Counted from the stretch's first letter, positions 1-52,934 are shown. The stretch is 52,934 nucleotides of DNA from Candidatus Pacearchaeota archaeon (GCA_017609795.1 JAFCDH010000001.1:1-52934), one strand, 5' to 3'. The notes: generated by a model from the letters alone, not told the origin. Made by a program: numbers and translations.

Positions 1-93
1 CTTAAGTGCTACTCTTTCTTGTTATATGTGGGGTATTTTAGCATTAATTATGGAAATGTATACACATATCTTAGAAAAGTTAGAGAGGAAAAA

Positions 94-303
94 ATGAAAA
101 AAAAGAATAAAATAACAATGAAAGAATTAAATAAACAAGAAAGAGAAATTAAAAAAAGAATTAAAAAAATAGATAAAAAATTAAAACAAAGAGAGAGAAA
201 AGAATTTAATTTAAAAAATCTAAAAACCACACAAAAATTAGCCCCATACCAAATATTTGATAATGATAAACTTGCACAGAAAATTAAGGGGATGTTAAGA
301 TGA
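94..303 (+). CDS. hypothetical Lys-rich coiled-coil protein
   Basis: Track ORF 19..303 starts at TTG; first in-frame ATG at 94 follows GAGAGG; stop overlaps next start (ATGA). Confidence 0.45.
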   Translation: MKKKNKITMKELNKQEREIKKRIKKIDKKLKQRERKEFNLKNLKTTQKLAPYQIFDNDKLAQKIKGMLR

Positions 304-527
304 ATAAAATAATAAAAATAATTGCTTGGACAATATTAATAGCTATAATTTGTTTAATTATTTATGGATTTACTTTAAGAATGATTAGTGGGAATATTTG
401 TAAAAAAGAATGTAGAGAAAGAGGAACTTTTGCTTATAAAGTTTTTCCAAATTCAGAATTAAATTTAAGAGATATTTGTATGTGCGTTTATCCTGATAAC
501 AAATTTGAGAGTTTTATAATAAAATGA
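300..527 (+). CDS. small membrane protein (N-terminal TM helix, Cys-containing tail)
   Basis: Track ORF; hydrophobic IIAWTILIAIICLIIYGF segment; ATGA coupling on both sides. Confidence 0.55.
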   Translation: MNKIIKIIAWTILIAIICLIIYGFTLRMISGNICKKECRERGTFAYKVFPNSELNLRDICMCVYPDNKFESFIIK

Positions 528-712
528 AAAGAGAATATTTTATAAGTTTTATTAGCACTAAAGATGAAAAATTTAGATATAGTCATAGAGTTATAATTGT
601 AAAAGATGGAAATTTTAATATTAATAAAGTTATAAAATTCTTAGAAGAAGCAGATAAATGTAAAGACATTGTTATATTAAACTTTAAAGAATTAAAATCT
701 TATGAAAAATGA
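524..712 (+). CDS. hypothetical protein
   Basis: Track ORF, start/stop overlaps with neighbours. Confidence 0.5.
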   Translation: MKREYFISFISTKDEKFRYSHRVIIVKDGNFNINKVIKFLEEADKCKDIVILNFKELKSYEK

Positions 713-1065
713 TAGATAAAGAAAAAAAACTTATAGATTGGAATAATTTTTTAAAAGAGAAATTTAAAATCCCAGAAAGATTTGAATTAGTAGATAAAGA
801 CAAACCTAAAGATAAAGGAAATCCTTATATGAAATTTATTTTAATATTCTTAGGAATTTTAGCCGTTGCTGGTTCTCTGGCCTATAATGGTTCTCAGGGA
901 AATTATAAAAGTGATATCGATTGTGGGAATAATACAATGATTTGTGAAGCAGATACATTAAATTGTGATTGTGAGAAATGTCCTGATAATAATTGTAATT
1001 GCGATTGTCCTGACTTTCCTTCAGATTTAGATATTGATTTAAATATTGTTAATGAAACAGAATAA
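709..1065 (+). CDS. membrane-anchored Cys-rich protein
   Basis: Central TM helix (FILIFLGILAVAGSLA) then CDCEKCPDNNCNCDCPDF cysteine cluster. Confidence 0.55.
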   Translation: MIDKEKKLIDWNNFLKEKFKIPERFELVDKDKPKDKGNPYMKFILIFLGILAVAGSLAYNGSQGNYKSDIDCGNNTMICEADTLNCDCEKCPDNNCNCDCPDFPSDLDIDLNIVNETE

Positions 1066-1067
1066 AA

Positions 1068-1268
1068 ATGACAACTAAAAAAGAAATAGATTATGAAAGA
1101 AAAGCAAAATTAGAAGTAGAAAAAATTAGGCACGAAAATCGTATGACTGAAATAGAAGAAGAAAGAAAAGCAAAAATACAGGTTGAAAATAAGAAATTTG
1201 ATAATCAAAAACAAATTCAAAGAATTAGAAATGCTGATATACAAAGGGCGCAATTAAGGAAATATTAA
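1068..1268 (+). CDS. hypothetical charged coiled-coil protein
   Basis: Track ORF; K/E/R-rich heptad-like sequence. Confidence 0.5.
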   Translation: MTTKKEIDYERKAKLEVEKIRHENRMTEIEEERKAKIQVENKKFDNQKQIQRIRNADIQRAQLRKY

Positions 1269-1270
1269 AA

Positions 1271-1408
1271 ATGAAATCTTACTGGGAAAGAAGAAGAGAA
1301 GAAAGAGAAAATAAGAAACAAATCACAAAAGAACAAGTAGAACAAGCTGAAAAAGATTTTGCTGAAAAATTAAATAAAAAAGCAAAAGGAATAAATGACA
1401 AGAGATAA
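1271..1408 (+). CDS. small basic ORF (45 aa)
   Basis: Hand-translated; ATG 2 nt after the previous stop; below the track size cutoff. Confidence 0.35.
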   Translation: MKSYWERRREERENKKQITKEQVEQAEKDFAEKLNKKAKGINDKR

Positions 1409-1415
1409 TTTGAAG

Positions 1416-1565
1416 ATGAAAAAGAAAAAAGAAGAAAGCTGGACTGATTATCCTAAATATAAAAATAAAAATGTTTTTGACAGAATTGCAGATAAATTTC
1501 ATGGAAAAGAATTTTTGATAGCATTTTGTTTAGTTTTAGGTTTTTATATATCAATAAAATTTTGA
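1416..1565 (+). CDS. small tail-anchored ORF (49 aa)
   Basis: Hand-translated; C-terminal hydrophobic FLIAFCLVLGFYISI; fills the gap before ATG 1568. Confidence 0.35.
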   Translation: MKKKKEESWTDYPKYKNKNVFDRIADKFHGKEFLIAFCLVLGFYISIKF

Positions 1566-1567
1566 AA

Positions 1568-2158
1568 ATGGAAGTAAAAAGTCAAACACAACAAATTGAA
1601 ACTTATGAAATGGTAGGGGATATAAAAAAATATAAAACTTCTGCAAAGACTATTAAAGGAATTGTTTTGGGTTTAATTCAAAAATTTAGAAATGATGCAA
1701 AAAAAGGAAAAATCTATTCTCCAACAGAATTAGAATGGGTTTTTTCAGAATCATTAAGAAGATTTAATGAATATTATCCTAATAAAATAGTAAAAAATGA
1801 AATCACAATTTTAGATGGTTGGAAAGGAAAAGATGTTAAAGAAGTTTATAAGGGATTTGATAAAGATTTTACAATAATACAACATGTTAAAGACAAAGAA
1901 ACTGGAGAAATCACTGAATTCCCTCATACTGTAAAAAAAGAGGATTTCAATAGAATACTATTCATAATTAAAAAACTGCCCTTAAATGAGCCCGTATCGT
2001 GTTATTTGATAGCTAAAAAATTAGGGTATGGTGAATGGAAGAACTTGTGGAAAGAAAGAAAAGAATATTTTAAATTTTACTACTTTCCTATTAAAGTATG
2101 TGAAGCATTAAAAATAATTAACTATTCTGGAAAAGGGACAATAATCAGAAAGGTTTAA
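1568..2158 (+). CDS. hypothetical protein
   Basis: Track ORF 1526..2158; in-frame ATG at 1568 directly follows the stop of the 1416..1565 ORF. Confidence 0.6.
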   Translation: MEVKSQTQQIETYEMVGDIKKYKTSAKTIKGIVLGLIQKFRNDAKKGKIYSPTELEWVFSESLRRFNEYYPNKIVKNEITILDGWKGKDVKEVYKGFDKDFTIIQHVKDKETGEITEFPHTVKKEDFNRILFIIKKLPLNEPVSCYLIAKKLGYGEWKNLWKERKEYFKFYYFPIKVCEALKIINYSGKGTIIRKV

Positions 2159-2180
2159 ATAGTATGTTACATTAGTTTAT

Positions 2181-2318
2181 ATGAGGTTACAAATGGTATG
2201 TAAGCACAATTGGAAAAGAATTTATTTTAGAAAAAAAGTTGGAAATAATAGAAAATGGGTAACAATACCTAATAAGTTTATTTGTGATAAATGTTTGGAA
2301 ATAAGGGAGTTAAAATAA
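2181..2318 (+). CDS. small Cys/His ORF (45 aa)
   Basis: Hand-translated MRLQMVCKHNW...ICDKCLEIRELK. Confidence 0.3.
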   Translation: MRLQMVCKHNWKRIYFRKKVGNNRKWVTIPNKFICDKCLEIRELK

Positions 2319-2322
2319 CAAA

Positions 2323-3045
2323 ATGCCATATAAAGATTATCAAAAAAGATTAGAATATCATAGAAAATATTATCAGGAGAATAAAGATAAATGGAAAAAG
2401 GAAAATTTTTGTGTAGATTGTAAAAAAAATATTTGGGATAATCATTTAAGGTGTATTTCTTGTGAGATTAAAAGAAGATGGAAAAAGGGAATTATTGATA
2501 TTGATAAAATGAGAATTTTAGCTAAACAAACACATACAGGAAAAATAGTCTCACAAGAAACAAGAGATAAGATTAGTAAGACACAAAAAGGAATGAAAAA
2601 GCCATGGGTTATTGAAAGAAATAAGTTTTATAATAAAATAGATAATACCTTTAGAAGATTAAGAAATACCGAAGAATTTAAAAAGAAGATGTTTAAAGGA
2701 ATGTGTAAAAAACCAACAAAACCAGAATTCTTTGTAATCGATTTGATAAAAGAAAAAAATCTTCCCTTTGAGTATGTTGGGGATGGGAAGGTTATTATAT
2801 CTAAATTAAACCCAAATTTTATATCTACAAATGGAAAGAAAAAAATTATTGAGGTTTTTGGAAGGTTTTGGCATGAAACATATCATAATGTTGATTATAC
2901 GAGAACAGAAAAAGGTAGAAGGGAATTTTTAAAAAGATTGGGATATGAATTACTTGTTTTATGGGATGATGAGTTAAATAAACAAAATAAAGAAAGAGTA
3001 TATAATAAAATTAATAATTTTGAAGTTCAAGGAGAATTTGAATAA
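2323..3045 (+). CDS. homing-type endonuclease: zinc ribbon + NUMOD3-like motif + Vsr/DUF559-like PD-(D/E)xK domain
   Basis: CVDCKK..CISCE; SQETRDKISKTQKG; C-terminal LPFEYVG..NPNF..IIEVFGRFWH..LLVLWDDE resembles Vsr-type nuclease core; paralog of 29157..29966. Confidence 0.7.
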   Translation: MPYKDYQKRLEYHRKYYQENKDKWKKENFCVDCKKNIWDNHLRCISCEIKRRWKKGIIDIDKMRILAKQTHTGKIVSQETRDKISKTQKGMKKPWVIERNKFYNKIDNTFRRLRNTEEFKKKMFKGMCKKPTKPEFFVIDLIKEKNLPFEYVGDGKVIISKLNPNFISTNGKKKIIEVFGRFWHETYHNVDYTRTEKGRREFLKRLGYELLVLWDDELNKQNKERVYNKINNFEVQGEFE

Positions 3046-3050
3046 ATGAT

Positions 3051-3494
3051 ATGGAAAATAATGTTAATAATCAATATAATAATACTGGTTTGGATAATAA
3101 AAATATGGGCAGAAAAATATTTAAAATGAATAATAAACTTTTATATTTTGTAATAATAATCTTAGTCTTAGTTGTAGTTGGAATGTTTTATAATTATTCA
3201 ATCAAACCAAAACAAGAAGAAAAAGTAAAAGATAAAGGAAAAATGGAATTAATTGACTCTATACTTCAAGAAGGAATACCGACAGGATATATATTTTGTC
3301 CTGATGTTAATTGGACTCAAATAGAAAATCTTAATAATACAGAAATTTTTAATACATATAAACAACTTTGTGCAACAGACGAAGATGTTTTTATAATAAG
3401 AAGTAATTTAGAAAATCTTTGTCAATCTGAATATCAAAGAGGATTAGGAGATGGGCAACAGCAAGGATATAATGTTGGTAAATCAGAATGTTAA
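3051..3494 (+). CDS. single-pass membrane protein
   Basis: TM helix LLYFVIIILVLVVVGMF, Cys-containing ectodomain. Confidence 0.55.
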   Translation: MENNVNNQYNNTGLDNKNMGRKIFKMNNKLLYFVIIILVLVVVGMFYNYSIKPKQEEKVKDKGKMELIDSILQEGIPTGYIFCPDVNWTQIENLNNTEIFNTYKQLCATDEDVFIIRSNLENLCQSEYQRGLGDGQQQGYNVGKSEC

Positions 3495-3575
3495 ATAATT
3501 TCAGGGGATAGAAATGGTTAAAGAAGATAAATTTGAAAAGGGGATTAAAATGAGGTGTGTCGTATAAGTTACAAA

Positions 3576-3770
3576 ATGGGAAATGAAATAATACATTATA
3601 TAAAGAAGCACAATAATAGATTAGTCTATATTTGTAATTGGGCTTGTGGAATAACTAAAGGGAAATTTACAGCTATGAAAGGAAAAGTAACTTGCAAAAA
3701 TTGTAAAAGAATACTTTATAAGGAGGTTAATAATAATGGGAAAACAACCAAAAAAAAGAAAACTAAGTGA
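3576..3770 (+). CDS. zinc-ribbon-like small protein
   Basis: Track ORF 3555..3770 starts at GTG inside a repeat; in-frame ATG at 3576; CNWACG...CKNCKR. Confidence 0.5.
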   Translation: MGNEIIHYIKKHNNRLVYICNWACGITKGKFTAMKGKVTCKNCKRILYKEVNNNGKTTKKKKTK

Positions 3771-4062
3771 AACAAGATTAATTGGTGGAGAAACAAGGGC
3801 TTTAGCAAATAAACTTCATAGAGATGAACATATAATTGTAGATAAACATTTACCAACCCATACAGCAGAATATTATTATCACATGGCTTGTTGGATTTAT
3901 GGAAATTTATTTGATGAGTTACAAGAGATTAAAGATTTAATAAAAAAGAAAAGAAAGAAGAGAAAACCATCAGAATATAATTTATTTGTTTCAGAAAAGA
4001 TGAAAGAAGGAATGACTTTAAAAGAAGCAGTTGCAGAATATAAAACTTCGTATAACAAATAA
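3736..4062 (+). CDS. basic protein with HMG/YABBY-like C-terminal motif
   Basis: AAGGAGGT RBS upstream; KRKPSEYNLFVSEKMKEGMTLKEAVAEYK; paralog of 5025..5264. Confidence 0.55.
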   Translation: MGKQPKKRKLSETRLIGGETRALANKLHRDEHIIVDKHLPTHTAEYYYHMACWIYGNLFDELQEIKDLIKKKRKKRKPSEYNLFVSEKMKEGMTLKEAVAEYKTSYNK

Positions 4063-4114
4063 AAACTGCAATGGAGATTATCAAAGAAAGAGCAGGAAAG
4101 GAGTTGATTTAATC

Positions 4115-4573
4115 ATGGTAAAAAAAGAAACATACGAAGAATGTTATAATAGGATTTACAAAATGATGCACCCTATTGGAATGAAAGATGGAAGAGAGTT
4201 ATCTAAATTAGTAAAAAAGAAAGGTAATTTTGTATTTCCACTTTATAGAAGTGTTTTAGTTGTAACCCCACTTAAAGGAGGACAAATTATGTTAGATTTT
4301 TTCCATGACCCTGCTTGGCTTGGAAATGAGAGAACTAAAAAAACAATTAAAAAATTTAAAGATGGAAAATCAATCCTATTGCAAGGACAAAGAAGTGGAG
4401 TAGATGTTTGGTATGGATTTGAAAGCAGAGATATTGCTATGAAAATATCAGATTTATTTTTTGAGGAATTAGAGGGAGTTGTAAAGAAACATCAGAAACG
4501 GATGGAAGATAGTTGGGATAAAGCAGTAAGGAAACAAAATAAAAGGAGAAAACAATATGATAAAAGTAAATAA
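4115..4573 (+). CDS. hypothetical protein
   Basis: Track ORF 4031..4573 (TTG); ATG 4115 follows GGAAAGGAG. Confidence 0.55.
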   Translation: MVKKETYEECYNRIYKMMHPIGMKDGRELSKLVKKKGNFVFPLYRSVLVVTPLKGGQIMLDFFHDPAWLGNERTKKTIKKFKDGKSILLQGQRSGVDVWYGFESRDIAMKISDLFFEELEGVVKKHQKRMEDSWDKAVRKQNKRRKQYDKSK

Positions 4574-4611
4574 AGATTTAATACAAGGGAGGAAAAAAGA
4601 TTAAATGAAAG

Positions 4612-4701
4612 ATGAAATTTGAAACTAAATTAAATATAATATTTGGAATAACTGCAATAGTGATGGTTTGGGCATCTTGGTATGTAAGTTCATTTATGTA
4701 A
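4612..4701 (+). CDS. 29-aa hydrophobic peptide
   Basis: Hand-translated MKFETKLNIIFGITAIVMVWASWYVSSFM; stop abuts ATG 4703. Confidence 0.25.
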   Translation: MKFETKLNIIFGITAIVMVWASWYVSSFM

Positions 4702-4702
4702 A

Positions 4703-4987
4703 ATGGGAATAAATGAAAAAATTGATGCACTGAAAAAGAAAACAAGAGAATATGAAGATGAATTGAAAGATTTAATAGAAAGTGATACATTTAAGATTTC
4801 AACAAATACTGCATTTTTACAAAATATAAAATTACAAGAAAAGTTTGAGGGATTTGGATTTTTTCCAGATTGGCTTAAATTAAAACATCAACAAATGTGG
4901 GATAAACAAACTGATGGAGATGTTGAAATTACTTTTAAAATTAAAATTCAAAAAGAAAAGGGGATTAAAATGAGGTGTGTCGTATAA
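4703..4987 (+). CDS. hypothetical protein
   Basis: Track ORF; its last 11 codons lie in the 41-nt repeat also found at 3535-3575. Confidence 0.5.
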   Translation: MGINEKIDALKKKTREYEDELKDLIESDTFKISTNTAFLQNIKLQEKFEGFGFFPDWLKLKHQQMWDKQTDGDVEITFKIKIQKEKGIKMRCVV

Positions 4988-5024
4988 GTTACAAATTACG
5001 AACTAAATACAATGGAGGTTAAAC

Positions 5025-5264
5025 ATGAAACGATTTGATTTAAAAGAAACAATAAGAAGATTAAGTGAGTTAGAATTAGAATCACAAAGAAAGGAATACT
5101 TTGGAGATGCAACTGAATATGCTTTTAGAAGGCATGTTTTAATATTACTCAATGGGTTAAAAAGAAAGCCAAGAACAATGTCTAAGTATAATTTACATGT
5201 ATCTAAAGAAATGAAGGCAGGAAAAACAATGGAAGAAGCTGTTAAAACTTGGAGGAAAAAATAA
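5025..5264 (+). CDS. basic protein with HMG/YABBY-like C-terminal motif (paralog of 3736..4062)
   Basis: GGAGGT RBS; KRKPRTMSKYNLHVSKEMKAGKTMEEAVKTW. Confidence 0.55.
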   Translation: MKRFDLKETIRRLSELELESQRKEYFGDATEYAFRRHVLILLNGLKRKPRTMSKYNLHVSKEMKAGKTMEEAVKTWRKK

Positions 5265-5282
5265 CTTCGCTTATCATAAAAA

Positions 5283-5432
5283 ATGGGAAATAAAAAACAA
5301 AAGAAATATGATTCAGGAAAAGAGTTTTTATTAATTAATAAGATTGATGATATTTGTGAATTTGAAATACCTGATTATTATAAGATTATTTTGATACTAA
5401 AAATAATAAGAAATTGGAGGGATGAATTTTAG
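5283..5432 (+). CDS. small ORF (49 aa)
   Basis: Hand-translated, frame and stop verified. Confidence 0.3.
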   Translation: MGNKKQKKYDSGKEFLLINKIDDICEFEIPDYYKIILILKIIRNWRDEF

Positions 5433-5473
5433 AGGGAAGAGATACATTTGGAAATTAATTGAAATCAAAGAAA

Positions 5474-5653
5474 ATGGAAAAAGAATTTAATTTAAGTGAG
5501 AAAATATTTGGAATTAGACAAGGATTTGTAGCTTATGAAGAAGAAATTAAAGAATTTATTAAGAGAGTGAAGATTGAATTTTATAGACCCTCAACTAATT
5601 GGGATAACTTTGAAGAGATAATAGACAAACTAGCAGGAGATAAATTAACATGA
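5474..5653 (+). CDS. hypothetical protein
   Basis: Track ORF 5459..5653 (TTG); in-frame ATG at 5474; stop overlaps next start. Confidence 0.45.
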   Translation: MEKEFNLSEKIFGIRQGFVAYEEEIKEFIKRVKIEFYRPSTNWDNFEEIIDKLAGDKLT

Positions 5654-6084
5654 AAACAATAAATTGGAATTTTAAATTGAAGAATTGTATTATTTGTAAT
5701 AATATTTTTAAACCAACTAATGGAAAACAAATAACTTGTTGTAAGGAATGTGAGGAAAAAAGAAAACTAAATTATAATAAGAAATATAACAAAAATAATC
5801 CTGAAATTGTTGCTAAATCTGTTAGAGAACATTATCAAAGAAATAAAAAAAAGAAATGTGAATATCAAATAAAATATAATCAAAATCATAAAGATGTTAT
5901 TAAATTAAGAAATGATACAAGAGAATATATTAGGAAAAATAAGATAAATTTTGTTGGTCTTTGTTTAGATTGTGGGAGATTATGTAAAAGAGAAATACAT
6001 CATATAACTCCAACCATTCAAGGATTTATTTTAATCTGTCAAGATTGCCATTACAAAAGACATAATAAAAGGAGTAGAAGATGA
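5650..6084 (+). CDS. HNH endonuclease with N-terminal zinc ribbon
   Basis: CIICNN..CCKECEE; C-terminal CLDCGR..EIHHITP..CQDCHYKRHNK. Confidence 0.6.
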   Translation: MKTINWNFKLKNCIICNNIFKPTNGKQITCCKECEEKRKLNYNKKYNKNNPEIVAKSVREHYQRNKKKKCEYQIKYNQNHKDVIKLRNDTREYIRKNKINFVGLCLDCGRLCKREIHHITPTIQGFILICQDCHYKRHNKRSRR

Positions 6085-6153
6085 GTTTTAAATCAATAAA
6101 AGAACTAAAAGCAAGGATTGAGGGAACTTCTGAAAATTAGGTAAATAACTGAA

Positions 6154-6375
6154 ATGGTATACAAAATTAAAGAAGTAAAAAATATGTATCAGTTCGTTGG
6201 AACAAGAGAAGTAGAATTACAAGAATATGATTTTGGAATAGTTTTTCCAGAGTTTTGTTTTGTTTGGAAGGATGGAAAAAAGATAAATAAGAAAATAATA
6301 AGGGAGTTATTGAAAATGAAAGATGAAGTAGAATTAGAAGATAAGAAAAGATTAAAGGAGAAGTCAAATGGTTAA
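6154..6375 (+). CDS. hypothetical protein
   Basis: Track ORF; ends KEKSNG inside a 17-nt junction repeat. Confidence 0.5.
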   Translation: MVYKIKEVKNMYQFVGTREVELQEYDFGIVFPEFCFVWKDGKKINKKIIRELLKMKDEVELEDKKRLKEKSNG

Positions 6376-6571
6376 AAACAATAAAGGTTGTGGAAGAATG
6401 TTAGCAATATCAGAAGATAGAGATTGTGGGGCATTTTGTCCTTTTTGTAAAGAAATTCATTATTGTGTTCTTTGTGGAGGGGGATATGAATTACATAGAA
6501 TTGCACTAAATATGATGGCTAAAGAAATGAAGAAGAAGAAAACTTCCCAAAAACAGAGGAAAATGAAATGA
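6368..6571 (+). CDS. Cys-rich zinc-binding small protein
   Basis: CGRM..CGAFCPFCKE..CVLCGG; ends SQKQRKMK, as does 8187..8378. Confidence 0.5.
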   Translation: MVKNNKGCGRMLAISEDRDCGAFCPFCKEIHYCVLCGGGYELHRIALNMMAKEMKKKKTSQKQRKMK

Positions 6572-6723
6572 CAATTAAAAACTTAGAACAAATGAGCAAA
6601 AGAATATGTAAAGGATGTAAAAAAGAAATAAGAATTGTAATAATTGAAAACCATAAAGCACCTTTACAAATATATCCAAAAGAAAGATTAAATTATTGTG
6701 ATGAATGTTGGGAGAAAAGATGA
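6568..6723 (+). CDS. zinc-ribbon ORF (51 aa)
   Basis: Hand-translated; CKGC...CDEC; ATGA coupling at both ends. Confidence 0.4.
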   Translation: MTIKNLEQMSKRICKGCKKEIRIVIIENHKAPLQIYPKERLNYCDECWEKR

Positions 6724-6854
6724 ACAAACATTGCATAAGGTGTGGAAGAAAATGTAAATCACAAATGGAAGAAGATGCTGAGCTTTGTGAATATCATTTG
6801 AGAAATAAATTAATAGATGATGTTAATAATGCAATATCAAGAATTTCAATATGA
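6720..6854 (+). CDS. Cys-rich ORF (44 aa)
   Basis: Hand-translated; CIRCGRKC...C..H. Confidence 0.35.
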   Translation: MNKHCIRCGRKCKSQMEEDAELCEYHLRNKLIDDVNNAISRISI

Positions 6855-6926
6855 ATAACAAAAACAAATAAACTATGACAAAAACTAAAACTTTAAATAA
6901 AAATTTAGGGCTTATTTGCCCTGTAT

Positions 6927-7000: not shown

Positions 7001-7026
7001 AATTGTGAGTAAACACAATAATAAAT

Positions 7027-7116: not shown

Positions 7117-7132
7117 ATTAAATTCAAATAAA

Positions 7133-7279: not shown

Positions 7280-7281
7280 AA

Positions 7282-44885: not shown

Positions 44886-44886
44886 T

Positions 44887-45822: not shown

Positions 45823-45823
45823 C

Positions 45824-46204
45824 TTATTCTGATTTTTCTTCTTTAGCTTCTTCTTTTTTCTCTTCTGAAGTTTCTTCACTTGTTTCTTCAGCCTTTGAAT
45901 CTTCTTCAGATTTCTCGGCTTCTGTTTCTGTTGTTTCTTCTTCTTGTGTTGTTTCGTCTTCTGCCATTTTTACCTCCTTTAATTTAATTTTAGTTTTATC
46001 TAAAATATCCCAAATATCTTTTTTTGAAATATCTGATTTTCCTTGATTCATTAAATATTTTCTTATCTCATCTCTCAATAGGTCTTCTTGGAATTCTTCT
46101 AAATCCTTTAGAACCCCTTTTGCTTTAAGTGTCCTATGATTATTTAATAAATCCCAAATCTTATCAACTTGTTCTTTTGTTATAATAAATTTTTCTTCAG
46201 TCAT
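45824..46204 (-). CDS. hypothetical protein with acidic E/T/K-rich tail
   Basis: Track ORF. Confidence 0.5.
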   Translation of the reverse strand: MTEEKFIITKEQVDKIWDLLNNHRTLKAKGVLKDLEEFQEDLLRDEIRKYLMNQGKSDISKKDIWDILDKTKIKLKEVKMAEDETTQEEETTETEAEKSEEDSKAEETSEETSEEKKEEAKEEKSE

Positions 46205-46206
46205 TT

Positions 46207-46335
46207 TTATTTCTCTTTCTTTTTGTCTAATTTTTCAATATGCCCACAAGTCTTACAAACCCTTTCATTAGTTTTAAATCTAATCCAGGTTTGAGTAGAA
46301 CCACATTTTTTACATCTTATTTTTTTATTTTCCAT
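46207..46335 (-). CDS. zinc-ribbon ORF (42 aa)
   Basis: Hand-translated MENKKIRCKKCGSTQ...CKTCGH. Confidence 0.4.
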   Translation of the reverse strand: MENKKIRCKKCGSTQTWIRFKTNERVCKTCGHIEKLDKKKEK

Positions 46336-46389
46336 TTTAATTCATATCCTAATTTTATTTTTTCCATTTCTTATTAAGTATTTTTTAGT

Positions 46390-46752
46390 TTATAAATGTT
46401 TTGTTTTTGTTTTTTTATATTCTTCTCTTAACTCACTAATATTCTCGTTCATCTTTTCTATATTGAAATCAAAAGTTCTTATTTGCCTCTGGAGTTTTCT
46501 TTTCTTAATCAATTCATTATAAATTTCCATTACTAAAGGATTAGATTTCTTTTCTACTATCTTATGGATTTTTTTTGTAAGAACCATTAAATTATCTAAG
46601 TCCTCGTTTCCCCCCTTCCGTTTTGGAACAATATGATGAACACTAAGATTCTTTTTGCTCAATGTAATTTCACAAAACCTTTCATCCTCAGGAAATAAGG
46701 AAATTAATTCTATTACAATTTTATCTCTCCCTCTTCTTTTTATAACTTTCAT
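46390..46752 (-). CDS. HNH endonuclease
   Basis: SVHHIVPKRKGGNEDLDNLMVLTKKIH. Confidence 0.65.
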   Translation of the reverse strand: MKVIKRRGRDKIVIELISLFPEDERFCEITLSKKNLSVHHIVPKRKGGNEDLDNLMVLTKKIHKIVEKKSNPLVMEIYNELIKKRKLQRQIRTFDFNIEKMNENISELREEYKKTKTKHL

Positions 46753-46753
46753 C

Positions 46754-47749
46754 TTAAAACATTTTATTTAATTCTTTATAAATCTCTTCTGAAGTAAATT
46801 TAACTATCCTTTTTCTTCCACCACCCCTTCCAAGATTTTTATGATAAGTTTCTATTACAGAATATTTTTCAAAAGTATTTAATAATTGAGAAATCCTAGC
46901 CTTAGAATAAAATTTCATTTTCTTTTCCAGATTCTCTGCAGTGGTTTCATTTTTCCAATCACAAGACCCTATAATATATCTTAAAAATTCTCTTTCTGTT
47001 TCATTAATATCATTAACAAAATCAAACCAATCTTGTTTTAACATTTGTTTATAAACATTGTCTATAAAGCTATGGGTAAAATTTCTTTTTTGAATACATT
47101 TAAGGGCTATATGGATTAATACTCTTGCAGAACCTTGCTGTCCTGCTATTGCAGAAATATAATTTAAAACCCCATCCTCAATCTTAGGTATCTTTGTTTT
47201 TATTTGTTTAATCCTTGAAATTAAAATATCTTTTAATTCTATAGAATTATAAGCAGGAAGACTTACTTTTTCAAAAAACAAAGTCTTTCTAGCATCTACA
47301 GGCATCTCAGAAATTATATTTCTTTTCATTGTTATAATAATTATTGGAATCATTGTGTTTCTATAAATTGTATTTAAATTATTAAACAATTGATTGACCC
47401 TGCTTATTTTATCTATCTCATCTATAATTAAAATGATTGGTTCTTCCTTAATCTTTTCTATTGTTCTTTTTAATAATTCCTCATTAGTTTTTATATTAAA
47501 ATTAAAGATTTTTTTTAAGGTCTTGTAAGGTGTTTGTGTTTCTAAACCAGAAACATAAATTGCATTATCTTGTTCTTCCAAAATCTTTTTTATAATGGTT
47601 GTTTTTCCACTCCCTGTAACACCTAATATTGCTAAATTAGTCCCACATTTATATTCTTTAAAATTAATAAAAACCTCCCTTATAACCTTCATTTGTTTGT
47701 CTCTATGTAAAATTTCTTTGGGTATATAAAAGTCTGATAATTCTAACAT
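46754..47749 (-). CDS. cdc6: Orc1/Cdc6 AAA+ replication initiator
   Basis: Walker A GVTGSGKTT, Walker B LIIDEIDK, C-terminal winged-helix-like region; adjacent ORB repeats. Confidence 0.85.
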   Translation of the reverse strand: MLELSDFYIPKEILHRDKQMKVIREVFINFKEYKCGTNLAILGVTGSGKTTIIKKILEEQDNAIYVSGLETQTPYKTLKKIFNFNIKTNEELLKRTIEKIKEEPIILIIDEIDKISRVNQLFNNLNTIYRNTMIPIIIITMKRNIISEMPVDARKTLFFEKVSLPAYNSIELKDILISRIKQIKTKIPKIEDGVLNYISAIAGQQGSARVLIHIALKCIQKRNFTHSFIDNVYKQMLKQDWFDFVNDINETEREFLRYIIGSCDWKNETTAENLEKKMKFYSKARISQLLNTFEKYSVIETYHKNLGRGGGRKRIVKFTSEEIYKELNKMF

Positions 47750-47792
47750 TAAACATTTAAAACACCAGAGTTTATAAATGTTTTGTTTAATT

Positions 47793-48065
47793 ATTTAAGT
47801 GTTTTACTATTCTTAAGTGTTTACATAAAATAATCATACGCGCGTGATTTAAGTGTTTGTGTTTCTAAGAAGAGTCAATCAACTCCCCTTAACACTTAAA
47901 TCACTCCCCTTAACACTTAAATCACGACATTTAAGTGTTCTTTATTATTATATTTGTTTATAAATTTTTATATTATATATTATATATATTGGAATTCCAA
48001 AATCAAAAAGTGTCGAATATAATAGTTAGTTATGGTGAATTAACAAGAACACTTAAATCACGCGC
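47793..48065. other. putative replication origin: 7 ORB-like repeats flanking an AT-rich DUE
   Basis: Core AACACTTAAAT(CAC) at 47891, 47912, 48048 (forward) and 47793, 47812, 47844, 47929 (reverse). Tandem 21-nt CTCCCCTTAACACTTAAATCA x2. 18-bp inverted repeat 47840-47857/48048-48065. Nearly pure A/T at 47941-47990. Confidence 0.7.
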
Positions 48066-48078
48066 ACGTAATTTTTCT

Positions 48079-48300
48079 TTAAATTTCAGCTTTCATACAA
48101 ATAATTCCAAATTCTTTCTTAAAATCATTTTCAATTTCTTCATCTGATTTTTTCTTATCCATTAATTTTAGAACAAATTTTCTTAAATATCTTATCATAT
48201 TATCTAATTTTTCATTTGCTTCATAATTAGTCAATCCTGATTGTTTATACTTCCAAAACAACATTTGCTTTTCTTCACCCTTTAAACTAAAACATGGCAT
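48079..48300 (-). CDS. hypothetical small protein (possible HTH)
   Basis: Track ORF. Confidence 0.4.
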   Translation of the reverse strand: MPCFSLKGEEKQMLFWKYKQSGLTNYEANEKLDNMIRYLRKFVLKLMDKKKSDEEIENDFKKEFGIICMKAEI

Positions 48301-48410
48301 CTTCCCCTTTTTGTATTTTACTTAATATTTCTAAACACCCCCCATTTAAATAACTTTTGTTAATGGTTAATGTTAGTTTATTTAAATGACAAAAACAGTC
48401 CGAAAAGTTA

Positions 48411-48857
48411 TTAATATCTGAAAACTGTCCGAATAGTCATTCTTTCTCCAAACCAAGTAGAATCTACAATTAAAGTATCTTCATTATCATTAAAAAACAA
48501 AGCAGAGATTTGTATTAATTTTTCTATAATAAATTTTGTGCTTTCATCATTATTTAATGTGCTTCTTGGAGGAACATAGCTAATTAATCCTTGCTCAAAC
48601 ATCCATTTTAAATCTGTCTGAGTTCTTCTGTAACTCATTCCATTATAAGACATCATACAAAGAGACTTTATTATATCTTTAAAATTTGATTTTGGTCTGC
48701 CAGTTATTTGTAATCGTTCAAAATTGAGGGGTTCGATAAAATCGCATAGATTTTGGATAAAATTTTGTTTTTCAGTTTCAAGAGTTAAAGTATTCTTCTG
48801 CAAAGCTATAACTGAATCTTGTTTCTGATGAATACTTAATTTTGTTTGAAGTTCCAT
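48411..48857 (-). pseudogene. truncated IS5-family-like transposase (N-terminal DUF772-like part only)
   Basis: GRPKSNFKDIIKSLCMMSYNGMSYRRTQTDL resembles the IS5/InsH N-terminal domain; no DDE domain follows. Confidence 0.4.
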
Positions 48858-48864
48858 ATAACTA

Positions 48865-48949
48865 TTGGTACCAACTACTATTTAAACTTATTGGTACCAA
48901 AACATATATATTCGTTGGTACCACAATATTTATATACTCTTGGTACCAA
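48865..48949. repeat. four TTGGTACCA(A/C) palindromic boxes at 24-26-nt spacing (iteron/operator array)
   Basis: Boxes at 48865, 48891, 48915, 48940, each followed by an A/T-rich TATA-like stretch; they fill the 101-nt divergent intergenic region. Confidence 0.75.
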
Positions 48950-48958
48950 TTAATAAGA

Positions 48959-49780
48959 ATGAGGCTTCAAAAACATAAGGTTAGAAAAAGTGGTGATAAA
49001 GAATATTACAAATGGGTTCTTGTTGTGCCACCCAATAGAATTGAACAACTTGGATGGAAAGAAGGAATTGAGTTGAAAGATGAAGTTAAAGGAGAATCTC
49101 TTTGCATACAACCTCTTTCTAAAGAAGAATTAAAAGGAATCCAGGAAAAACCTTTATACGATGATTTCAAGAAATCAATAAAGACCATCTTAGAGAGACA
49201 TCCAAAAGGATTAACTTGGACACAGATAAGAGACAAATTAAACTTTCCACAAAAATATCCAAACAATCAATGGGTAAAGAAGTTAGAAAAGGATATTGGA
49301 TTAAAGAGAATTAAAACTGGTGGAGATTTGTTCTGGAGCTCAGAAAATGAAACGATTTACACAATAGGTTATGAAGGATATACTATTGAGAAATTTATTA
49401 AAAAATTAAGAGACAGCAACATTCAGCAATTAATAGACGTAAGAGAGATTGCTCTTAGTAGAAAAAATGGATTTTCAAAAACAATTTTAAGTAAAAGTTT
49501 GAAAGATGCTGGAATAAAATATAAACACATTCCAGAACTTGGTTCTCCAAAGCAAGTAAGGCACCAGTTACATAAAGACTTAGATTATGAAAAATTCTTT
49601 AAGGAATATAAACAACATATCAATGACCCAGACATTTTAGATAATATCTCAGATATAGAAGGAAGGGCGAGAAGGAAAAAAACAGTTCTATTATGTTATG
49701 AAAGGGATTATAAAATATGCCATAGAAGCATCATAGCAGAAGAGCTTAAGAGAAGGGGGTGGAAGGTTAATCATCTATAA
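48959..49780 (+). CDS. AbrB/SpoVT-like + winged-helix + DUF488 protein
   Basis: Track ORF from 48842 runs through the repeat array; ATG at 48959. VLVVPPNRIEQLGWKEGIEL; IYTIGYEGYTIEKF..LIDVREIALSRKNGFSK..YKHIPELG..LLCYERDYKICHR. Confidence 0.7.
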   Translation: MRLQKHKVRKSGDKEYYKWVLVVPPNRIEQLGWKEGIELKDEVKGESLCIQPLSKEELKGIQEKPLYDDFKKSIKTILERHPKGLTWTQIRDKLNFPQKYPNNQWVKKLEKDIGLKRIKTGGDLFWSSENETIYTIGYEGYTIEKFIKKLRDSNIQQLIDVREIALSRKNGFSKTILSKSLKDAGIKYKHIPELGSPKQVRHQLHKDLDYEKFFKEYKQHINDPDILDNISDIEGRARRKKTVLLCYERDYKICHRSIIAEELKRRGWKVNHL

Positions 49781-49781
49781 A

Positions 49782-50537
49782 ATGGTATTATTAAAGAATT
49801 TAATAGTTATAGGTCAAGGAGCTCCAAACCAATTAAAAGATGGGAGACAATCGGTTTGTGTTTGTGCTTGTAAATTAGATAGCAAGGAATTGATAAGAAT
49901 ATATCCCGTCCCAATTGGTTGGTTAAGAAAATGGGATATTTTTGACGCAGAAGTTGAAAAAAATCCAAGAGACCATAGGGAAAATACCTGGAAAATAAAA
50001 AATTCTAAACAAGATTGGAAGAAAATTTATAAATGGATAGACAGAAAAGAGGAAAAGTATCCAGATAAAAATAAGGAGGGATTAATAAAATCAATTGGAT
50101 TTAGTGTATTAAGCGATTTGATTGATAACAAGAAGAGTTTTGGCATCATAAAGCCCAAGATAGAAAATTTCGAGCTTGAACAAAAAAATAAAAGCACCTC
50201 AAAACAATTAACACTAAATTTTGGAGATGAACAGGACTTAGATGAGCCATTCACAATTATTAATCAGAAAGACTATAAATTTAAACCATATGTAGCTTAT
50301 AAATGTGCAGGAAACTGTAAATGTAAAAAGAAAGTACACAGACAAAGCATTTCAGAATGGGGATGTTATGAATTTATGAGGAAAAATCCTGGAAAAGAAG
50401 AACAGCTAAAAGATAACCTTAGATTATTTGACCCTGAGTGGAATGTCTATCTTTTAGTCGGAAATATTCATAAAGCACCACAAACATATATTATCATTGA
50501 TATTTTAAGATTTAAAAAGAAGGAGTTTAAAAAATGA
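49782..50537 (+). CDS. hypothetical protein (operon partner, Cys cluster CAGNCKCKKK)
   Basis: Track ORF; 1-nt gap upstream, ATGA overlap downstream. Confidence 0.55.
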   Translation: MVLLKNLIVIGQGAPNQLKDGRQSVCVCACKLDSKELIRIYPVPIGWLRKWDIFDAEVEKNPRDHRENTWKIKNSKQDWKKIYKWIDRKEEKYPDKNKEGLIKSIGFSVLSDLIDNKKSFGIIKPKIENFELEQKNKSTSKQLTLNFGDEQDLDEPFTIINQKDYKFKPYVAYKCAGNCKCKKKVHRQSISEWGCYEFMRKNPGKEEQLKDNLRLFDPEWNVYLLVGNIHKAPQTYIIIDILRFKKKEFKK

Positions 50538-51205
50538 ATTTTAAACTTTCTCCTTCTACTCTTAATATTATGCAAGAATGTCCAAGATGTTTCTGTCTCT
50601 CTCAACATAATGTCTGGAAAAGACCACCATCAATTTTTCCATCACTCCCCTCTGGGATGGATAGAATCCTAAAAACACATTTTGATAAATTCAGAGATAA
50701 AGGCGAGCTTCCACCAGAACTTTGTGATAATTCTCATTGCAAGAACATTGATAATTCTCATTGCAAGAACATGAAACTATTTGATGATGTAGAGAAAATG
50801 AAAGTTTGGCAATCAAATTTTAAAGGTATAAGTTGGACAGATAAAAATGGAAACAAATTACATGGAGCTGTAGATAATATTTTAGTAAAAGGAAAGAAGC
50901 TTATTGTTTTAGATTACAAGACAAGAGGTTATGCTCTTAAGGAAGATACAGCAGAACATTATAGATTACAACAAAATATTTACAATTTCTTGTTAAGAAA
51001 AAACGACTATCAAACAGAAGATTATTTTTTCTTGTTATTTTATGTTCCAAAAGAGGTTATGCCAACAGGAGAAGTTATATTTGATACAGAATTAGTCAAG
51101 ATGAAAGTAGATGTTTCTCAGGCAGAGAAGACTTGGAAAAAAGCACTAAAACTTTTAAACTCTGATTGTCCAACTAAATCATGCGAATGGTGTGAAGGAA
51201 GATGA
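50534..51205 (+). CDS. Cas4/RecB-like PD-(D/E)xK nuclease with Fe-S-type cysteines
   Basis: N-terminal CPRC, HGAVDNI, VLDYKT, QQNIYNF, C-terminal CPTKSCEWC. Confidence 0.6.
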   Translation: MNFKLSPSTLNIMQECPRCFCLSQHNVWKRPPSIFPSLPSGMDRILKTHFDKFRDKGELPPELCDNSHCKNIDNSHCKNMKLFDDVEKMKVWQSNFKGISWTDKNGNKLHGAVDNILVKGKKLIVLDYKTRGYALKEDTAEHYRLQQNIYNFLLRKNDYQTEDYFFLLFYVPKEVMPTGEVIFDTELVKMKVDVSQAEKTWKKALKLLNSDCPTKSCEWCEGR

Positions 51206-52934
51206 AAAAAGCAAAGAAAAAAACAACGAAGAAGACTAAGAAAAAGCAAAAGAAAGAATCTATTAAATTAGGAGAGTATATTAGGGAATCCAAAAAAGAG
51301 ATTAAGAAAGATGAAGTAGAAATAAATGTTGAGATTCCTAAACAAGTAGAGTTCTTTAAAACCCCTGTAAGATTTGGAAACATCCCTGTTGACACTCTTC
51401 CTCTTGGGTGTGATGAAAAGGAACAATACAGAAAACTATATCCAAAGGTTTCTCTTCCTTTCCAGATTGTTGAAAGAGTTACATTAGGACATCCAAAATT
51501 AGAAGCAAACAAATTAATCTTTGGAGATAATTTACATTTAATGAGGATGTTGCCTTCTAATTCAATTGACCTCATTTATATTGACCCCCCATTTTTTTCT
51601 GGTAGAAATTATAATGTGGTTTTCGGAGATTCAAATGAAGTTAGAAGTTTTACAGATATATGGGAAGGTGGAATGCCTGGTTATTTAACTTGGTTAAATG
51701 CAAGATTATTAGAGATGAAGAGGTTACTGAAACCTACGGGTTCTATTTTGGTTCATTTAGACCATCATGCAGGGCATTATGTTAAGGTTGAGATGGATAA
51801 AATTTTTGGTTATGAAAATTTCCGAAATGAAATAGTTTGGCATTACTTTATGGGTGGGAAAGCATCTACTTTTTTTGGTAGGAAACATGATGTTATTTTA
51901 TGGTATTCTAAAGGAAAGGAATGGAGTTTTAATAAAATGCAAAAGAAGAGAAGATTGGACTTTAAGCCATCTCTTCCCGCAAAATCTTCAACAGGGAAAA
52001 AGATAGAAGATAAAACTGGAAAAGATGAATTTGGATATTATAGTATTGTTTCTATGGATGATGTGTGGGATATAAGAGGAGTATTTAATATGGGAAAAGA
52101 ATATATGGGCTATCCTACACAGAAGCCTGAAGAATTACTAAAAAGATTTTTAGAAGCATTATCCAAACCAGGAGACGTAGTAGCAGATTTCTTTTGTGGG
52201 GGAGGAACAACTCCTGCAGTTGCTCAGAAGTTAGGAAGAAGATGGATTGCTTCGGACATCTCAAAGATTGCTGTTTCTGTTACAAGAGATAGATTATTAA
52301 GAGATATTTTAGGAGATGATGGAAAAACAGTTCAACAATCAATAACAAAAGTTCCAGACATTGAGGTTTCTCACTGGGGAGTTTATGAAGTTCCAGAATT
52401 AATTAAAATGAATGAAGAGTCTTTTAGAAATTTTATTATCTCTGCTTATAACGGAAGATTATCAAGTATGGAAGGACTTATTCATGGATATAAACAATCT
52501 ATTCCCCTGTTTGTGGGGAGTCCATCTCAAGAAAAACCAATTACAGAAAAAGAAGTTGTTGCTTTTGCTAAAGAGATTGTTAAGAAAAGAGGACATCACT
52601 CTGGAACAATGATTTCTTGGGGATTCACGCCTGGAGCTCAAAAAGCCGCACAAGAACTTAAAGCACAGCATGCTTTGGCTATTGATTTTGTAAAAATAGA
52701 TTTGGTCAATATTGAATCAGAGAAGTTTAGAGAACATATTTCAAAGTACGGTGGAGAATATAAACAACTCCTTAAATTTATTCTTCCGCCACAAGTTAGA
52801 ATCTCTCATAAAAAAATTCAAGATACAAAATATGAATTTGATGTTTCAGAATCTGTTTCATTAAATCCAGAAGGAAGAATAATTAATGTTCAATGGGATT
52901 TTAGTTACAATGGAGAAAGATTCATTTCAACTCC
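51202..52934 (+). CDS. beta-class N6-adenine/N4-cytosine DNA methyltransferase (partial, runs off window)
   Basis: Hand-translated open frame from the ATGA overlap; IYIDPPFF (motif IV), YPTQKPEELLKRF, ADFFCGGGTT (motif I); not in the track because there is no stop. Confidence 0.85.
   Translation, partial: MKKAKKKTTKKTKKKQKKESIKLGEYIRESKKEIKKDEVEINVEIPKQVEFFKTPVRFGNIPVDTLPLGCDEKEQYRKLYPKVSLPFQIVERVTLGHPKLEANKLIFGDNLHLMRMLPSNSIDLIYIDPPFFSGRNYNVVFGDSNEVRSFTDIWEGGMPGYLTWLNARLLEMKRLLKPTGSILVHLDHHAGHYVKVEMDKIFGYENFRNEIVWHYFMGGKASTFFGRKHDVILWYSKGKEWSFNKMQKKRRLDFKPSLPAKSSTGKKIEDKTGKDEFGYYSIVSMDDVWDIRGVFNMGKEYMGYPTQKPEELLKRFLEALSKPGDVVADFFCGGGTTPAVAQKLGRRWIASDISKIAVSVTRDRLLRDILGDDGKTVQQSITKVPDIEVSHWGVYEVPELIKMNEESFRNFIISAYNGRLSSMEGLIHGYKQSIPLFVGSPSQEKPITEKEVVAFAKEIVKKRGHHSGTMISWGFTPGAQKAAQELKAQHALAIDFVKIDLVNIESEKFREHISKYGGEYKQLLKFILPPQVRISHKKIQDTKYEFDVSESVSLNPEGRIINVQWDFSYNGERFIST

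Follow-up and report, generated by a model that had tools for sequence, protein, structure and literature searches.

A previously undescribed family of archaeal mobile elements with features of membrane-containing viruses

The contig JAFCDH010000001.1 (positions 1-52934, assembly GCA_017609795.1, deposited under Candidatus Pacearchaeota archaeon), analysed here over its whole length of 52,934 bp and referred to below as the window, is with little room for doubt an archaeal mobile element and not a piece of chromosome, and we lean, with rather more conviction than hesitation, towards a virus as its most likely nature, one whose particle contains a membrane (enveloped or pleomorphic) and whose host is an AT-rich, anaerobic archaeon. 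It represents a previously undescribed family, absent from every curated virus, plasmid and reference-genome collection searched. The first conclusion follows from the lack of housekeeping and transfer RNA (tRNA) genes, from the joining of a conserved core to differing replication and cargo modules, and from the lack of any relative in GTDB. The leaning towards a virus comes from the matches of a core ATPase to Pox_A32, FtsK and phrog_2666, from the homology of a fibre protein to phage tails, from the match of a core protein of 315 amino acids (aa) in BFVD and from the multiple homing endonucleases, the dense block of small co-oriented early genes and the Cas4-like and methyltransferase genes, all of them typical of viral genomes. 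An initial annotation of the sequence had taken the window for an archaeal virus, provirus or plasmid-like element outside the core chromosome, and the absence of housekeeping and tRNA genes, the archaeal replicon and the recurring core all bear this out.

The window is one unclosed piece, with a guanine-plus-cytosine (GC) content of about 28%, a coding share of 97% and an orphan-rich gene content throughout. It holds about 88 strand-consistent open reading frames (ORFs), and not the roughly 110 genes first estimated (the number of ORFs of at least 40 aa is 96), and these lie in five same-strand blocks: 1-12033 (+), 12081-35982 (-), 36243-41179 (+), 41164-48857 (-) and 48842-end (+). Between 39 and 47 of the ~88 are shorter than 100 aa (the initial annotation gave about 45 mini-ORFs, rich in zinc ribbons), and zinc-ribbon-like Cys pairs occur in 9-13 of the 36 early ORFs. 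Searches of the window for tRNAs, Rfam families and CRISPR arrays all came back empty, and no housekeeping gene was found (Pfam with all ORFs of at least 40 aa, together with the tRNA and Rfam searches). The earlier statement that ribosomal, tRNA-synthetase and central-metabolism genes are missing thus stands for housekeeping genes, but it passed over a metabolic-type pair at 41164-43003, described below. Neither an integrase nor an att-like repeat was seen in the window (Pfam, PHROGs and inspection of repeats).

The conserved core

What defines the family is a syntenic core (27673-41179 in the window, about 14 kb) common to more than 20 metagenome contigs, a set gathered from the contigs of ATPase homologues and from a metagenome scan. 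ATPase identity across these related loci ranges from 24% to 78%, and all have about 30% GC; the distant ones retain only part of the core gene set. On one strand the core encodes small proteins with two transmembrane (TM) segments, a large Cys-rich surface protein, and then four more proteins: one with 4 TM segments (~155 aa), one that is secreted (~270 aa), one that is polytopic (~250 aa) and one of ~315 aa; on the divergent strand a small protein is followed by the ATPase and then by proteins of ~225, 180, 200, 100 and 185 aa. The ATPase, the 315-aa beta-sandwich protein, a CPBP-like protease and the 4-TM protein together provide a set of markers for the family.

The ATPase (596 aa, 36471-38261, +), the principal family marker, probably starts 15 codons further downstream, giving 581 aa. 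Its homologues number only 19 among 5.8 billion protein clusters, and none of them is named. The window protein has weak Pfam matches to Pox_A32, FtsK and Zot; across the family, Pox_A32 is matched by 15 of 19 members (best 2.9e-5) and FtsK_SpoIIIE by 14 of 19, with weaker matches to AAA_10 (VirB4-like; 8/19) and TrwB (6/19). The only terminase-labelled PHROG match, to phrog_2666, is confined to the P-loop region. To judge by these profiles the protein is a P-loop ATPase of the HerA/FtsK superfamily and of the DNA-pump type; a PDB profile search with it retrieved none of the STIV- or PRD1-type ATPases. In distant relatives the N-terminal ~150 residues correspond to a separate upstream gene (129-165 aa), and there the homologues, of 423-446 aa, lack this part (loci L017, L020, L021, L023 and L028 were compared); in the history of the family the two genes have been fused, or one gene has been split.

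The 315-aa core protein (35035-35982, -), which has only 13 homologues, is the best candidate for a major structural or envelope protein. Its AlphaFold2 (AF2) model (mean predicted confidence, pLDDT, 72.7) has a TM helix at the N-terminus and a pair of beta-sandwich domains. Comparison of the model with PDB by Foldseek gave immunoglobulin (Ig)-like pilins and adhesins at a TM-score of ~0.3 and no capsid fold; in BFVD the top match was an unnamed viral protein, A0A5Q2WAX2, aligned over its full length (E 1.3e-13, TM-score 0.61). A tblastn search of GenBank phages with this protein found nothing even at E 10, and a PDB profile search with its family had no match. Two other ideas about it were abandoned: a class III-like prepilin motif, MNKxGA, is near-invariant in close homologues and not conserved in distant members, and a double jelly-roll was ruled out by Foldseek.

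Next to it lies the gene for a 260-aa polytopic protein (34139-34921, -), which we read as a divergent CPBP/Rce1-like intramembrane protease. In ten homologues E129 is invariant and F170xxxH174 and H213xxxN217 are invariant or nearly so; motif 1, which is EExxxR in CPBP/Rce1, is reduced to one invariant E (ET). Two of the ten members match PF02517 (best 4.4e-5), and a sequence and profile search of PDB with the family found no match. On the same strand are a 272-aa secreted protein (32873-33691, -), rich in glycosylation sequons and with an amphipathic C-terminal tail; the 151-aa 4-TM protein (32338-32793, -), whose identity to its counterparts is 52-59% among close relatives and about 30% among distant relatives; and the 613-aa Cys-rich surface protein (30437-32278, -), which has a CARDB domain and whose C-terminal membrane part is conserved in relatives. 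Beyond these, a run of small proteins with one to four TM segments (62-164 aa; 26189-30440, -) is broken by a DUF559 endonuclease gene (29157-29966) and includes a 233-aa TM-anchored, beta-rich protein (28131-28832, -); membership in the core begins within this run, at 27673.

Between the divergent core operons is a conserved gene for a 55-aa protein (36243-36410, +), ribbon-helix-helix-like by eye. Downstream of the ATPase gene come five genes (38291-41179, +) conserved to varying extents, whose products are of 223 aa (signal peptide, coiled coil, C-terminal TM segment), 182 aa (small beta domain and long helix), 205 aa (acidic N-terminus and helix-turn-helix), 103 aa and 183 aa (2 TM segments, PepSY-like by eye). 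The AF2 model of the 182-aa protein, made from five sequences, has a pLDDT of 57, and Foldseek gave nothing meaningful for it.

Archaeal replication, chromatin and promoter signals

Genes of replication and chromatin, together with a TATA-like motif, mark the window as archaeal. A gene for an Orc1/Cdc6 replication initiator (46754-47749, -) has as its best PDB match the Sulfolobus Orc1-1/origin complex 2qby_A (3.8e-14), and reaches 1.3e-25 with TIGR02928, under the cutoff of that model; the Orc1 of one relative (L025) is 44% identical to it, and it has no match among GenBank phages. Beside it the intergenic region 47750-48078 is a putative replication origin resembling those with origin recognition boxes (ORBs), with AACACTTAAATCAC repeats in both orientations flanking an AT-rich unwinding region. 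Eight copies (four exact, four near) lie within 47752-48061, and no exact copy occurs elsewhere in the window; at up to three mismatches there are 30 matches in place of 14.5 expected. A 21-nt tandem unit at the origin bears a C/G-string, and some copies of AACACTTAAATCAC adjoin such a string. In the close relative L118, analogous AACACTTTAA repeats stand upstream of the Orc1 gene. The window therefore has both the initiator gene and, next to it, the repeat arrangement that characterize an archaeal Orc1/Cdc6-dependent replicon.

Adjacent is a chromatin and accessory block (44376-46752, -) comprising genes for a membrane protein of 169 aa, a basic zinc ribbon of 61 aa, Alba, another membrane protein (156 aa) and an HNH endonuclease, in an order that is kept in L118. 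The Alba gene (45072-45377, -) is recognized by Pfam (2.7e-12) and scores 87.9 bits with the NCBIfam AlbA model, for which the cutoff is 90. Two very basic small proteins accompany it in the window: the zinc ribbon (44887-45072, -), with a net charge of about +19, and an 88-aa protein (14945-15211, -) which, with a net charge of about +30, is by its composition a candidate DNA-condensing protein. The element may therefore package or organize its DNA with chromatin proteins of its own, namely Alba and these two.

The Alba gene, the Orc1/Cdc6 gene with its ORB-like origin and the gene for an S26B-type signal peptidase, all three named in the initial annotation, are thus present according to Pfam, PDB and curated models. 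Because their scores with curated models fall under the trusted cutoffs (those of Orc1 and the signal peptidase well below, that of Alba just below), they are taken to be divergent copies, as is usual among genes carried on mobile elements.

A further archaeal signal is a 20-nt motif, TTAATTAAATAAATGAAAAC, of which the window has four copies (0.26 expected), at 28839-28858 (-), 32800-32819 (-), 33696-33715 (-) and 40287-40306 (+). In each case a core gene has its ATG 23-26 nt downstream of the point where the motif begins, and in archaea this is the distance at which the TATA box of a leaderless messenger RNA (mRNA) is placed. We read the motif as a TATA-like late promoter giving leaderless mRNAs. 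Sites resembling those of sigma-70 are rarer in the window than in shuffled sequence.

The fibre and other surface proteins

In the minus-strand block of 24 kb, 24 of the 28 genes encode a signal or TM segment, the four others being those for two homing endonucleases, a 74-aa protein and the 88-aa basic protein of charge ~+30. At least seven small 2-TM proteins are encoded.

At one end of this block is the gene for a 955-aa fibre (12081-14948, -), with an N-terminal signal or TM segment and a C-terminal Peptidase_S74 intramolecular chaperone domain (Pfam 8e-8). This is the only window protein with clear relatives in virus collections. At about 31% identity, residues 773-953 (the S74 end) match minor-tail and tail-fibre proteins from phages of Streptomyces, Bacillus and Synechococcus, and residues 214-429 match proteins encoded by huge uncultured phages. 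The identity rises to 60% between residues 94-418 and a protein of 960 aa on the IMG/VR contig UViG_3300025736_000056 (L114). That contig (IMGVR_UViG_3300025736_000056), of 36% GC, has the 960-aa gene at 9233-12112 and a domain of 325 residues in common with the window fibre; Pfam and PHROGs gave it no assignment, and its signal peptides look bacterial. As the contig is unclassified and has bacterial-looking signal peptides, the likeness is better seen as fibre-domain exchange with viruses than as a sign of host identity, and it suggests a recent exchange of the domain between very different elements, possibly across domains of life.

Further along the block is the gene for a predicted type-I membrane glycoprotein of 1269 aa (16363-20172, -), with Big_13 Ig-like domains and 60 N-x-S/T sequons (27 +/- 4 in shuffled sequences), followed by that for an archaeal-type signal peptidase I (Sec11/S26B-like; 20174-20665, -; Pfam S24 2e-5, TIGR02228 4e-11, under cutoff), in whose sequence HR and GDNN motifs can be seen. 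Three large membrane-anchored proteins are encoded at 21955-26192 (-): one Cys-rich and acidic (449 aa), one with a CBM96 domain (522 aa) and one beta-rich (436 aa). The 522-aa protein has, after CBM96, a coiled-coil stalk of 14-residue repeats and a C-terminal TM segment. Within its gene (23420-24128, -) are 42-nt repeats, 63-81% alike, which encode the stalk between carbohydrate-binding head and anchor.

Distribution of the family and its variable modules

The family has so far been met only in metagenomes, from groundwater and from other sites that are mostly anoxic. Alignment of the ATPase against 185,579 GTDB species-representative genomes (one per species) revealed no relative, a search of the 72,556 plasmids of PLSDB had no match, and literature searches found no description of the family. 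The initial annotation had held that housekeeping flanks, with a fixed position in related cellular genomes, would tell for a chromosomal location; the GTDB representatives lend this no support, and the unseen parts of contigs of 80 and 129 kb that contain the core leave some room for integration. Across some 240 kb, made up of the window and 17 related loci, there is no tRNA gene, and neither an integrase nor an att-like repeat was seen in any related locus.

Around the constant core, the replication, early and cargo genes vary among relatives; a conserved structural or transfer module accompanied by interchangeable replication and cargo modules is a standard architecture of archaeal viruses and plasmids. 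A relative from Hainich groundwater (0.1-um fraction; contigs of 44 and 80 kb) encodes an Hjc-like nuclease, an AAA protein resembling Orc1 and an MCM that bears the winged-helix domain of archaea. Homologues of the homing-type endonucleases occupy differing places among relatives, and that of the free-standing HNH endonuclease at 21167-21952 (-; Pfam) is found at other positions in L006 and L023. An IS605-type TnpB is intact in L007 and L017.

The cargo of the window (41164-44379, -) comprises a pair of metabolic-type genes (41164-43003, -), for an ATPase of the acyl-CoA dehydratase activase kind (BcrAD_BadFG 9.5e-41; TIGR00241 above cutoff) and its DUF2229/HgdB-like companion, along with the genes for two surface proteins, of 176 and 270 aa. 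In L118 the last core gene is joined directly to the Alba-HNH-Orc1 block and the cargo is absent, so the cargo is taken to be an insertion specific to the element in the window. The same slot, downstream of the gene for the 183-aa core protein, is filled differently in the 129-kb ENA contig L004, where positions 14779-21272 contain four genes of the radical-S-adenosylmethionine (SAM) kind, three of them radical-SAM/SPASM genes and the other B12-binding, together with a split transketolase-like pair and a gene for a TrmB regulator. Because the content of the slot differs in the window and is nil in L118, these metabolic genes are more readily seen as cargo than as flanking host DNA. Such cargo (the activase pair, and the radical-SAM/transketolase cluster of the relative) could affect the physiology of genome-reduced archaeal hosts.

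As to the host, the oxygen-sensitive activase, the low GC content, the 0.1-um groundwater fractions and the types of metagenome sample, which we take to be largely anoxic sediments and stratified lakes, suggest an archaeon that is anaerobic and has small cells. A DPANN host, for example a member of the Woesearchaeota, is plausible and weakly indicated. The best genome matches of the activase are to a bin labelled Eubacteriales (53%), a Woesearchaeota metagenome-assembled genome (MAG; 53%), a bin labelled Saccharibacteria (52%) and another Woesearchaeota MAG (46%); the top match is a bacterial bin, and hundreds of anaerobic bacteria are among the matches. The closest homologue (P0040, 58%) is present only on contigs of less than 3 kb. 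The DPANN-type host proposed in the initial annotation thus keeps the low GC content, the Woesearchaeota matches at 53% and 46% (among many bacterial ones) and the 0.1-um relatives in its favour.

Comparison with known viruses and plasmids

Four groups of known elements invite comparison. The Pleolipoviridae, which are without a recognizable icosahedral capsid and whose replication modules vary around a structural core, resemble the window in having a single P-loop NTPase alongside small multi-TM proteins and spike-type proteins that carry signal peptides and are anchored in the membrane. The resemblance is architectural only: no homologue of VP3, the VP4 spike or the VP8 NTPase was found among the core proteins with PHROGs, no sequence similarity was detected (PHROGs, Pfam), the genome in the window is three to eight times larger, its ATPase is of the HerA/FtsK type, and it encodes in addition an S74 fibre of the phage type, a signal peptidase and the CPBP-like protease. 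In PRD1/STIV-type viruses (Varidnaviria), an ATPase of the A32/FtsK-HerA kind pumps DNA through a membrane-embedded portal, and the window has a HerA/FtsK-superfamily ATPase (with its Pox_A32 and FtsK matches) beside many small membrane proteins; it differs in that no double or single vertical jelly-roll was found (no Pfam or PHROG match, and an Ig-like AF2 model for the 315-aa protein), and in that its ATPase exceeds the usual size more than twofold and is closest, by PDB profile, to HerA.

Spindle-shaped viruses (Fuselloviridae, Halspiviridae, Thaspiviridae and Wyrdviridae) share with the window very hydrophobic 2-TM proteins, which could be capsid subunits, as well as a large terminal adhesin or fibre, dense small orphan genes and an archaeal host. 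The window differs from them in having a larger genome, no integrase and no detected capsid of the SSV1 VP1 type (no PHROG or Pfam match for the small 2-TM proteins) or AAA+ ATPase of the SSV type, its only AAA+ protein being Orc1-like. Archaeal conjugative plasmids, the Ced and Ted systems and pR1SE have in common with it an Orc1-type replicon, one ATPase of the HerA/VirB4 superfamily, a size of about 50 kb, and polytopic and small hairpin membrane proteins. Unlike them, the window bears phage-type fibre domains and multiple homing endonucleases, has no PLSDB match and, with one transfer-type ATPase only, shows no relaxase, VirD4/VirB4 pair, VirB6-like family or other type IV secretion system family (Pfam, window ORFs).

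Virus, plasmid or chromosomal island?

Several observations weigh against a virus. No capsid, portal, polymerase or integrase family was recognized (Pfam with all ORFs of at least 40 aa, PHROGs with the large and core ORFs), nor any terminase family beyond the phrog_2666 match on the ATPase P-loop, just as the initial annotation had remarked; this includes the markers of Caudoviricetes (HK97-fold capsid, portal and large terminase), for which Pfam and PHROGs gave no match. The best structural candidate, the 315-aa protein, is modelled as Ig-like and not as a jelly-roll or HK97 fold, and its BFVD match, A0A5Q2WAX2, is an unnamed protein whose accession no paper mentions. By PDB profile it is cellular HerA (2e-5), and not a viral packaging ATPase, that comes closest to the ATPase. 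Scans of IMG/VR with the ATPase, the 315-aa protein, the CPBP-like protein, the 1269-aa glycoprotein and Orc1 found no match, and the family was not found among GenBank phages. The 52,934-bp contig has no terminal direct repeat or end overlap, so that neither termini nor the circularity raised in the initial annotation are to be seen on it. Related contigs reach 80 and 129 kb, a large size for an archaeal virus without a tail, and cellular DNA could lie in the parts of them that are out of view; and the cue to the host is a single cargo gene, with best matches divided between bacteria and Woesearchaeota. The suggestion that any viral morphogenetic module here would be of an undescribed type fits these results well, given the lack of any known capsid or packaging family and a 315-aa candidate that is neither jelly-roll nor HK97.

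The main rival, which we consider quite possible without thinking it probable, is a non-viral plasmid that spreads by a membrane route, either through conjugation-like transfer of double-stranded DNA, pumped by the HerA/FtsK ATPase across a mating junction that the adhesins, fibre and membrane proteins would form, or in plasmid-loaded membrane vesicles, as has reportedly been seen for the haloarchaeal plasmid pR1SE. The Orc1/origin replicon and the missing capsid genes suit such a plasmid, as do HerA as best PDB match of the ATPase and the weak AAA_10 (8/19) and TrwB (6/19) matches of its family; a secretome in which adhesins and many small 2-TM proteins stand beside a signal peptidase and the CPBP-like protease resembles a surface apparatus, and both the metabolic cargo (in the window and in L004) and the size of related contigs, up to 80-129 kb, would be at home on a plasmid. 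Against this are the single transfer-type ATPase, the undetected relaxase, VirD4/VirB4 pair and VirB6-like protein, the blank result with the 72,556 PLSDB plasmids, the fibre domains in common with phage tail proteins, and the five homing endonucleases and dense early block, which are unusual for plasmids. The same contigs could be invoked for an integrated provirus, or a variable island of surface-protein genes, in a small DPANN chromosome or a megaplasmid, assembled without its flanks: the core occurs in the 129-kb contig near the radical-SAM, split-transketolase and TrmB genes with no change in GC, and in the 80-kb contig; the window lacks a terminal repeat; and giant surface proteins and an abundance of orphan genes are familiar features of DPANN genomes. 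We think this unlikely, since the window and related loci have no integrase, att-like repeat or tRNA, the 185,579 species-representative genomes contain no relative, the metabolic genes of L004 fill a slot that is variable (other cargo in the window, nothing in L118), and the element has an Orc1 and origin of its own.

A bacterial source, in the form of a phage or plasmid of an ultra-small bacterium of the candidate phyla radiation (CPR), or of some other AT-rich bacterium, with acquired archaeal-like genes, is very improbable in our judgement. It could appeal to the fibre homologues in bacterial phages and in the IMG/VR contig with bacterial-looking signal peptides, to the bacterial bin that is the top match of the cargo activase, and to the relatives in 0.1-um groundwater fractions, which are rich in CPR bacteria; it is opposed by the Orc1/Cdc6 gene with its ORB-like origin, Alba and the archaeal-type signal peptidase in the window, by the winged-helix MCM and Hjc-like nuclease of relatives, and by the TATA-like motif at leaderless distance together with the deficit of sigma-70-like sites.

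A possible life cycle and its significance

If the element is a membrane-containing virus, its cycle might run as follows; beyond gene content, synteny and the positions of motifs, all of these steps are what we infer. Once inside, the element would use its small early genes and its methyltransferase/nuclease block to take over the cell and protect the incoming DNA, and Orc1 would load the host replisome onto the origin. The late promoter would then drive production of the membrane proteins and glycoproteins, to be inserted via Sec and matured by the element's own signal peptidase and the CPBP-like protease. A membrane-bounded particle could be built around the TM-anchored double beta-sandwich protein of 315 aa and the small membrane proteins, and the HerA/FtsK ATPase would translocate the genome into it; Alba and the +30 basic protein may serve to condense this DNA. 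Attachment to a new host would be through the S74 fibre and the giant glycoproteins.

It is conceivable, and we offer it tentatively and with more doubt than confidence, that the family represents a new high-rank lineage of large (50 to >100 kb) enveloped viruses of DPANN-type hosts, which would do without a jelly-roll or HK97 capsid and combine a vesicle-like particle, Sec-exported glycoproteins on its surface whose maturation would be the work of the viral signal peptidase and CPBP protease, Alba-coated DNA and a HerA/FtsK pump. If so, it would embody a morphogenetic principle that is missing from virus taxonomy and invisible to current detection pipelines. Standard pipelines detect only what resembles known viruses, and to our knowledge few viruses or plasmids have been firmly linked to DPANN-type and other uncultivated anaerobic archaea, which are dominant in many anoxic sediments and aquifers. 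If viral, the family would add a new type of morphogenesis and show that archaeal viruses of a whole class are systematically missed; a plasmid-like nature would mean a new membrane-based system of DNA transfer.

Early genes, DNA modification and the contig ends

The early or regulatory block (1-12033, +) is made up of about 36 co-oriented, overlapping small ORFs, 26 of them of less than 100 aa, and includes a SAM-methyltransferase-like ORF (11012-11602, +), a NUMOD3/DUF559 endonuclease gene (2323-3045, +; Pfam) and an HNH-like endonuclease gene recognized by motif only (5650-6084, +). With the HNH gene of the minus-strand block mentioned above, the DUF559 gene (29157-29966, -; Pfam) and the HNH gene beside Orc1 (46390-46752, -; Pfam), these make up the five HNH or Vsr-like endonucleases first noticed in the window, of which four have Pfam support (HNH/DUF559) and the one at 5650-6084 its motif alone. 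The S74 fibre, HerA/FtsK-type ATPase, Cas4-like nuclease and DNA methyltransferase that had been picked out at the same time were each detected by family profiles.

The last two belong to a DNA-modification and nuclease block (48842-52934, +), which encodes a DUF488 protein, a 251-aa orphan, the Cas4-like PD-(D/E)XK nuclease (50534-51205, +; family profile match) and the N6_N4 DNA methyltransferase (51202-end, +; Pfam 8.5e-44). The Cas4-like gene contains a perfect 24-nt tandem duplication (50725-50772), by which the peptide DNSHCKN(I/M) is doubled. Just before the block, a 148-aa ORF (48411-48857, -) without a family match resembles, by eye, a truncated N-terminal fragment of a transposase. 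Two tandem arrays, one of 24 nt x 3.8 (48856-48949, at the start of the DUF488 gene and some 800 nt from the origin) and one of 17 nt x 5.2 (32238-32324, across the start of the gene for the 613-aa surface protein and just upstream of it), might be iterons or regulatory sites.

At its right end the contig truncates the N6/N4 methyltransferase gene. Exact searches with the window yielded only short fragments, ~100% identical to it, from its own JGI sample (L001-L003). At its left end (window 1-303; positions 1-500 of the 6.8-kb fragment L001, from the JGI sample of the window) a lysine-rich small gene is duplicated in tandem, with a period of about 203 nt. L001 extends 193 nt beyond the left end of the window and carries there a further tandem copy of the window's first small gene, and from this it seems that the assembly broke within the tandem duplication.

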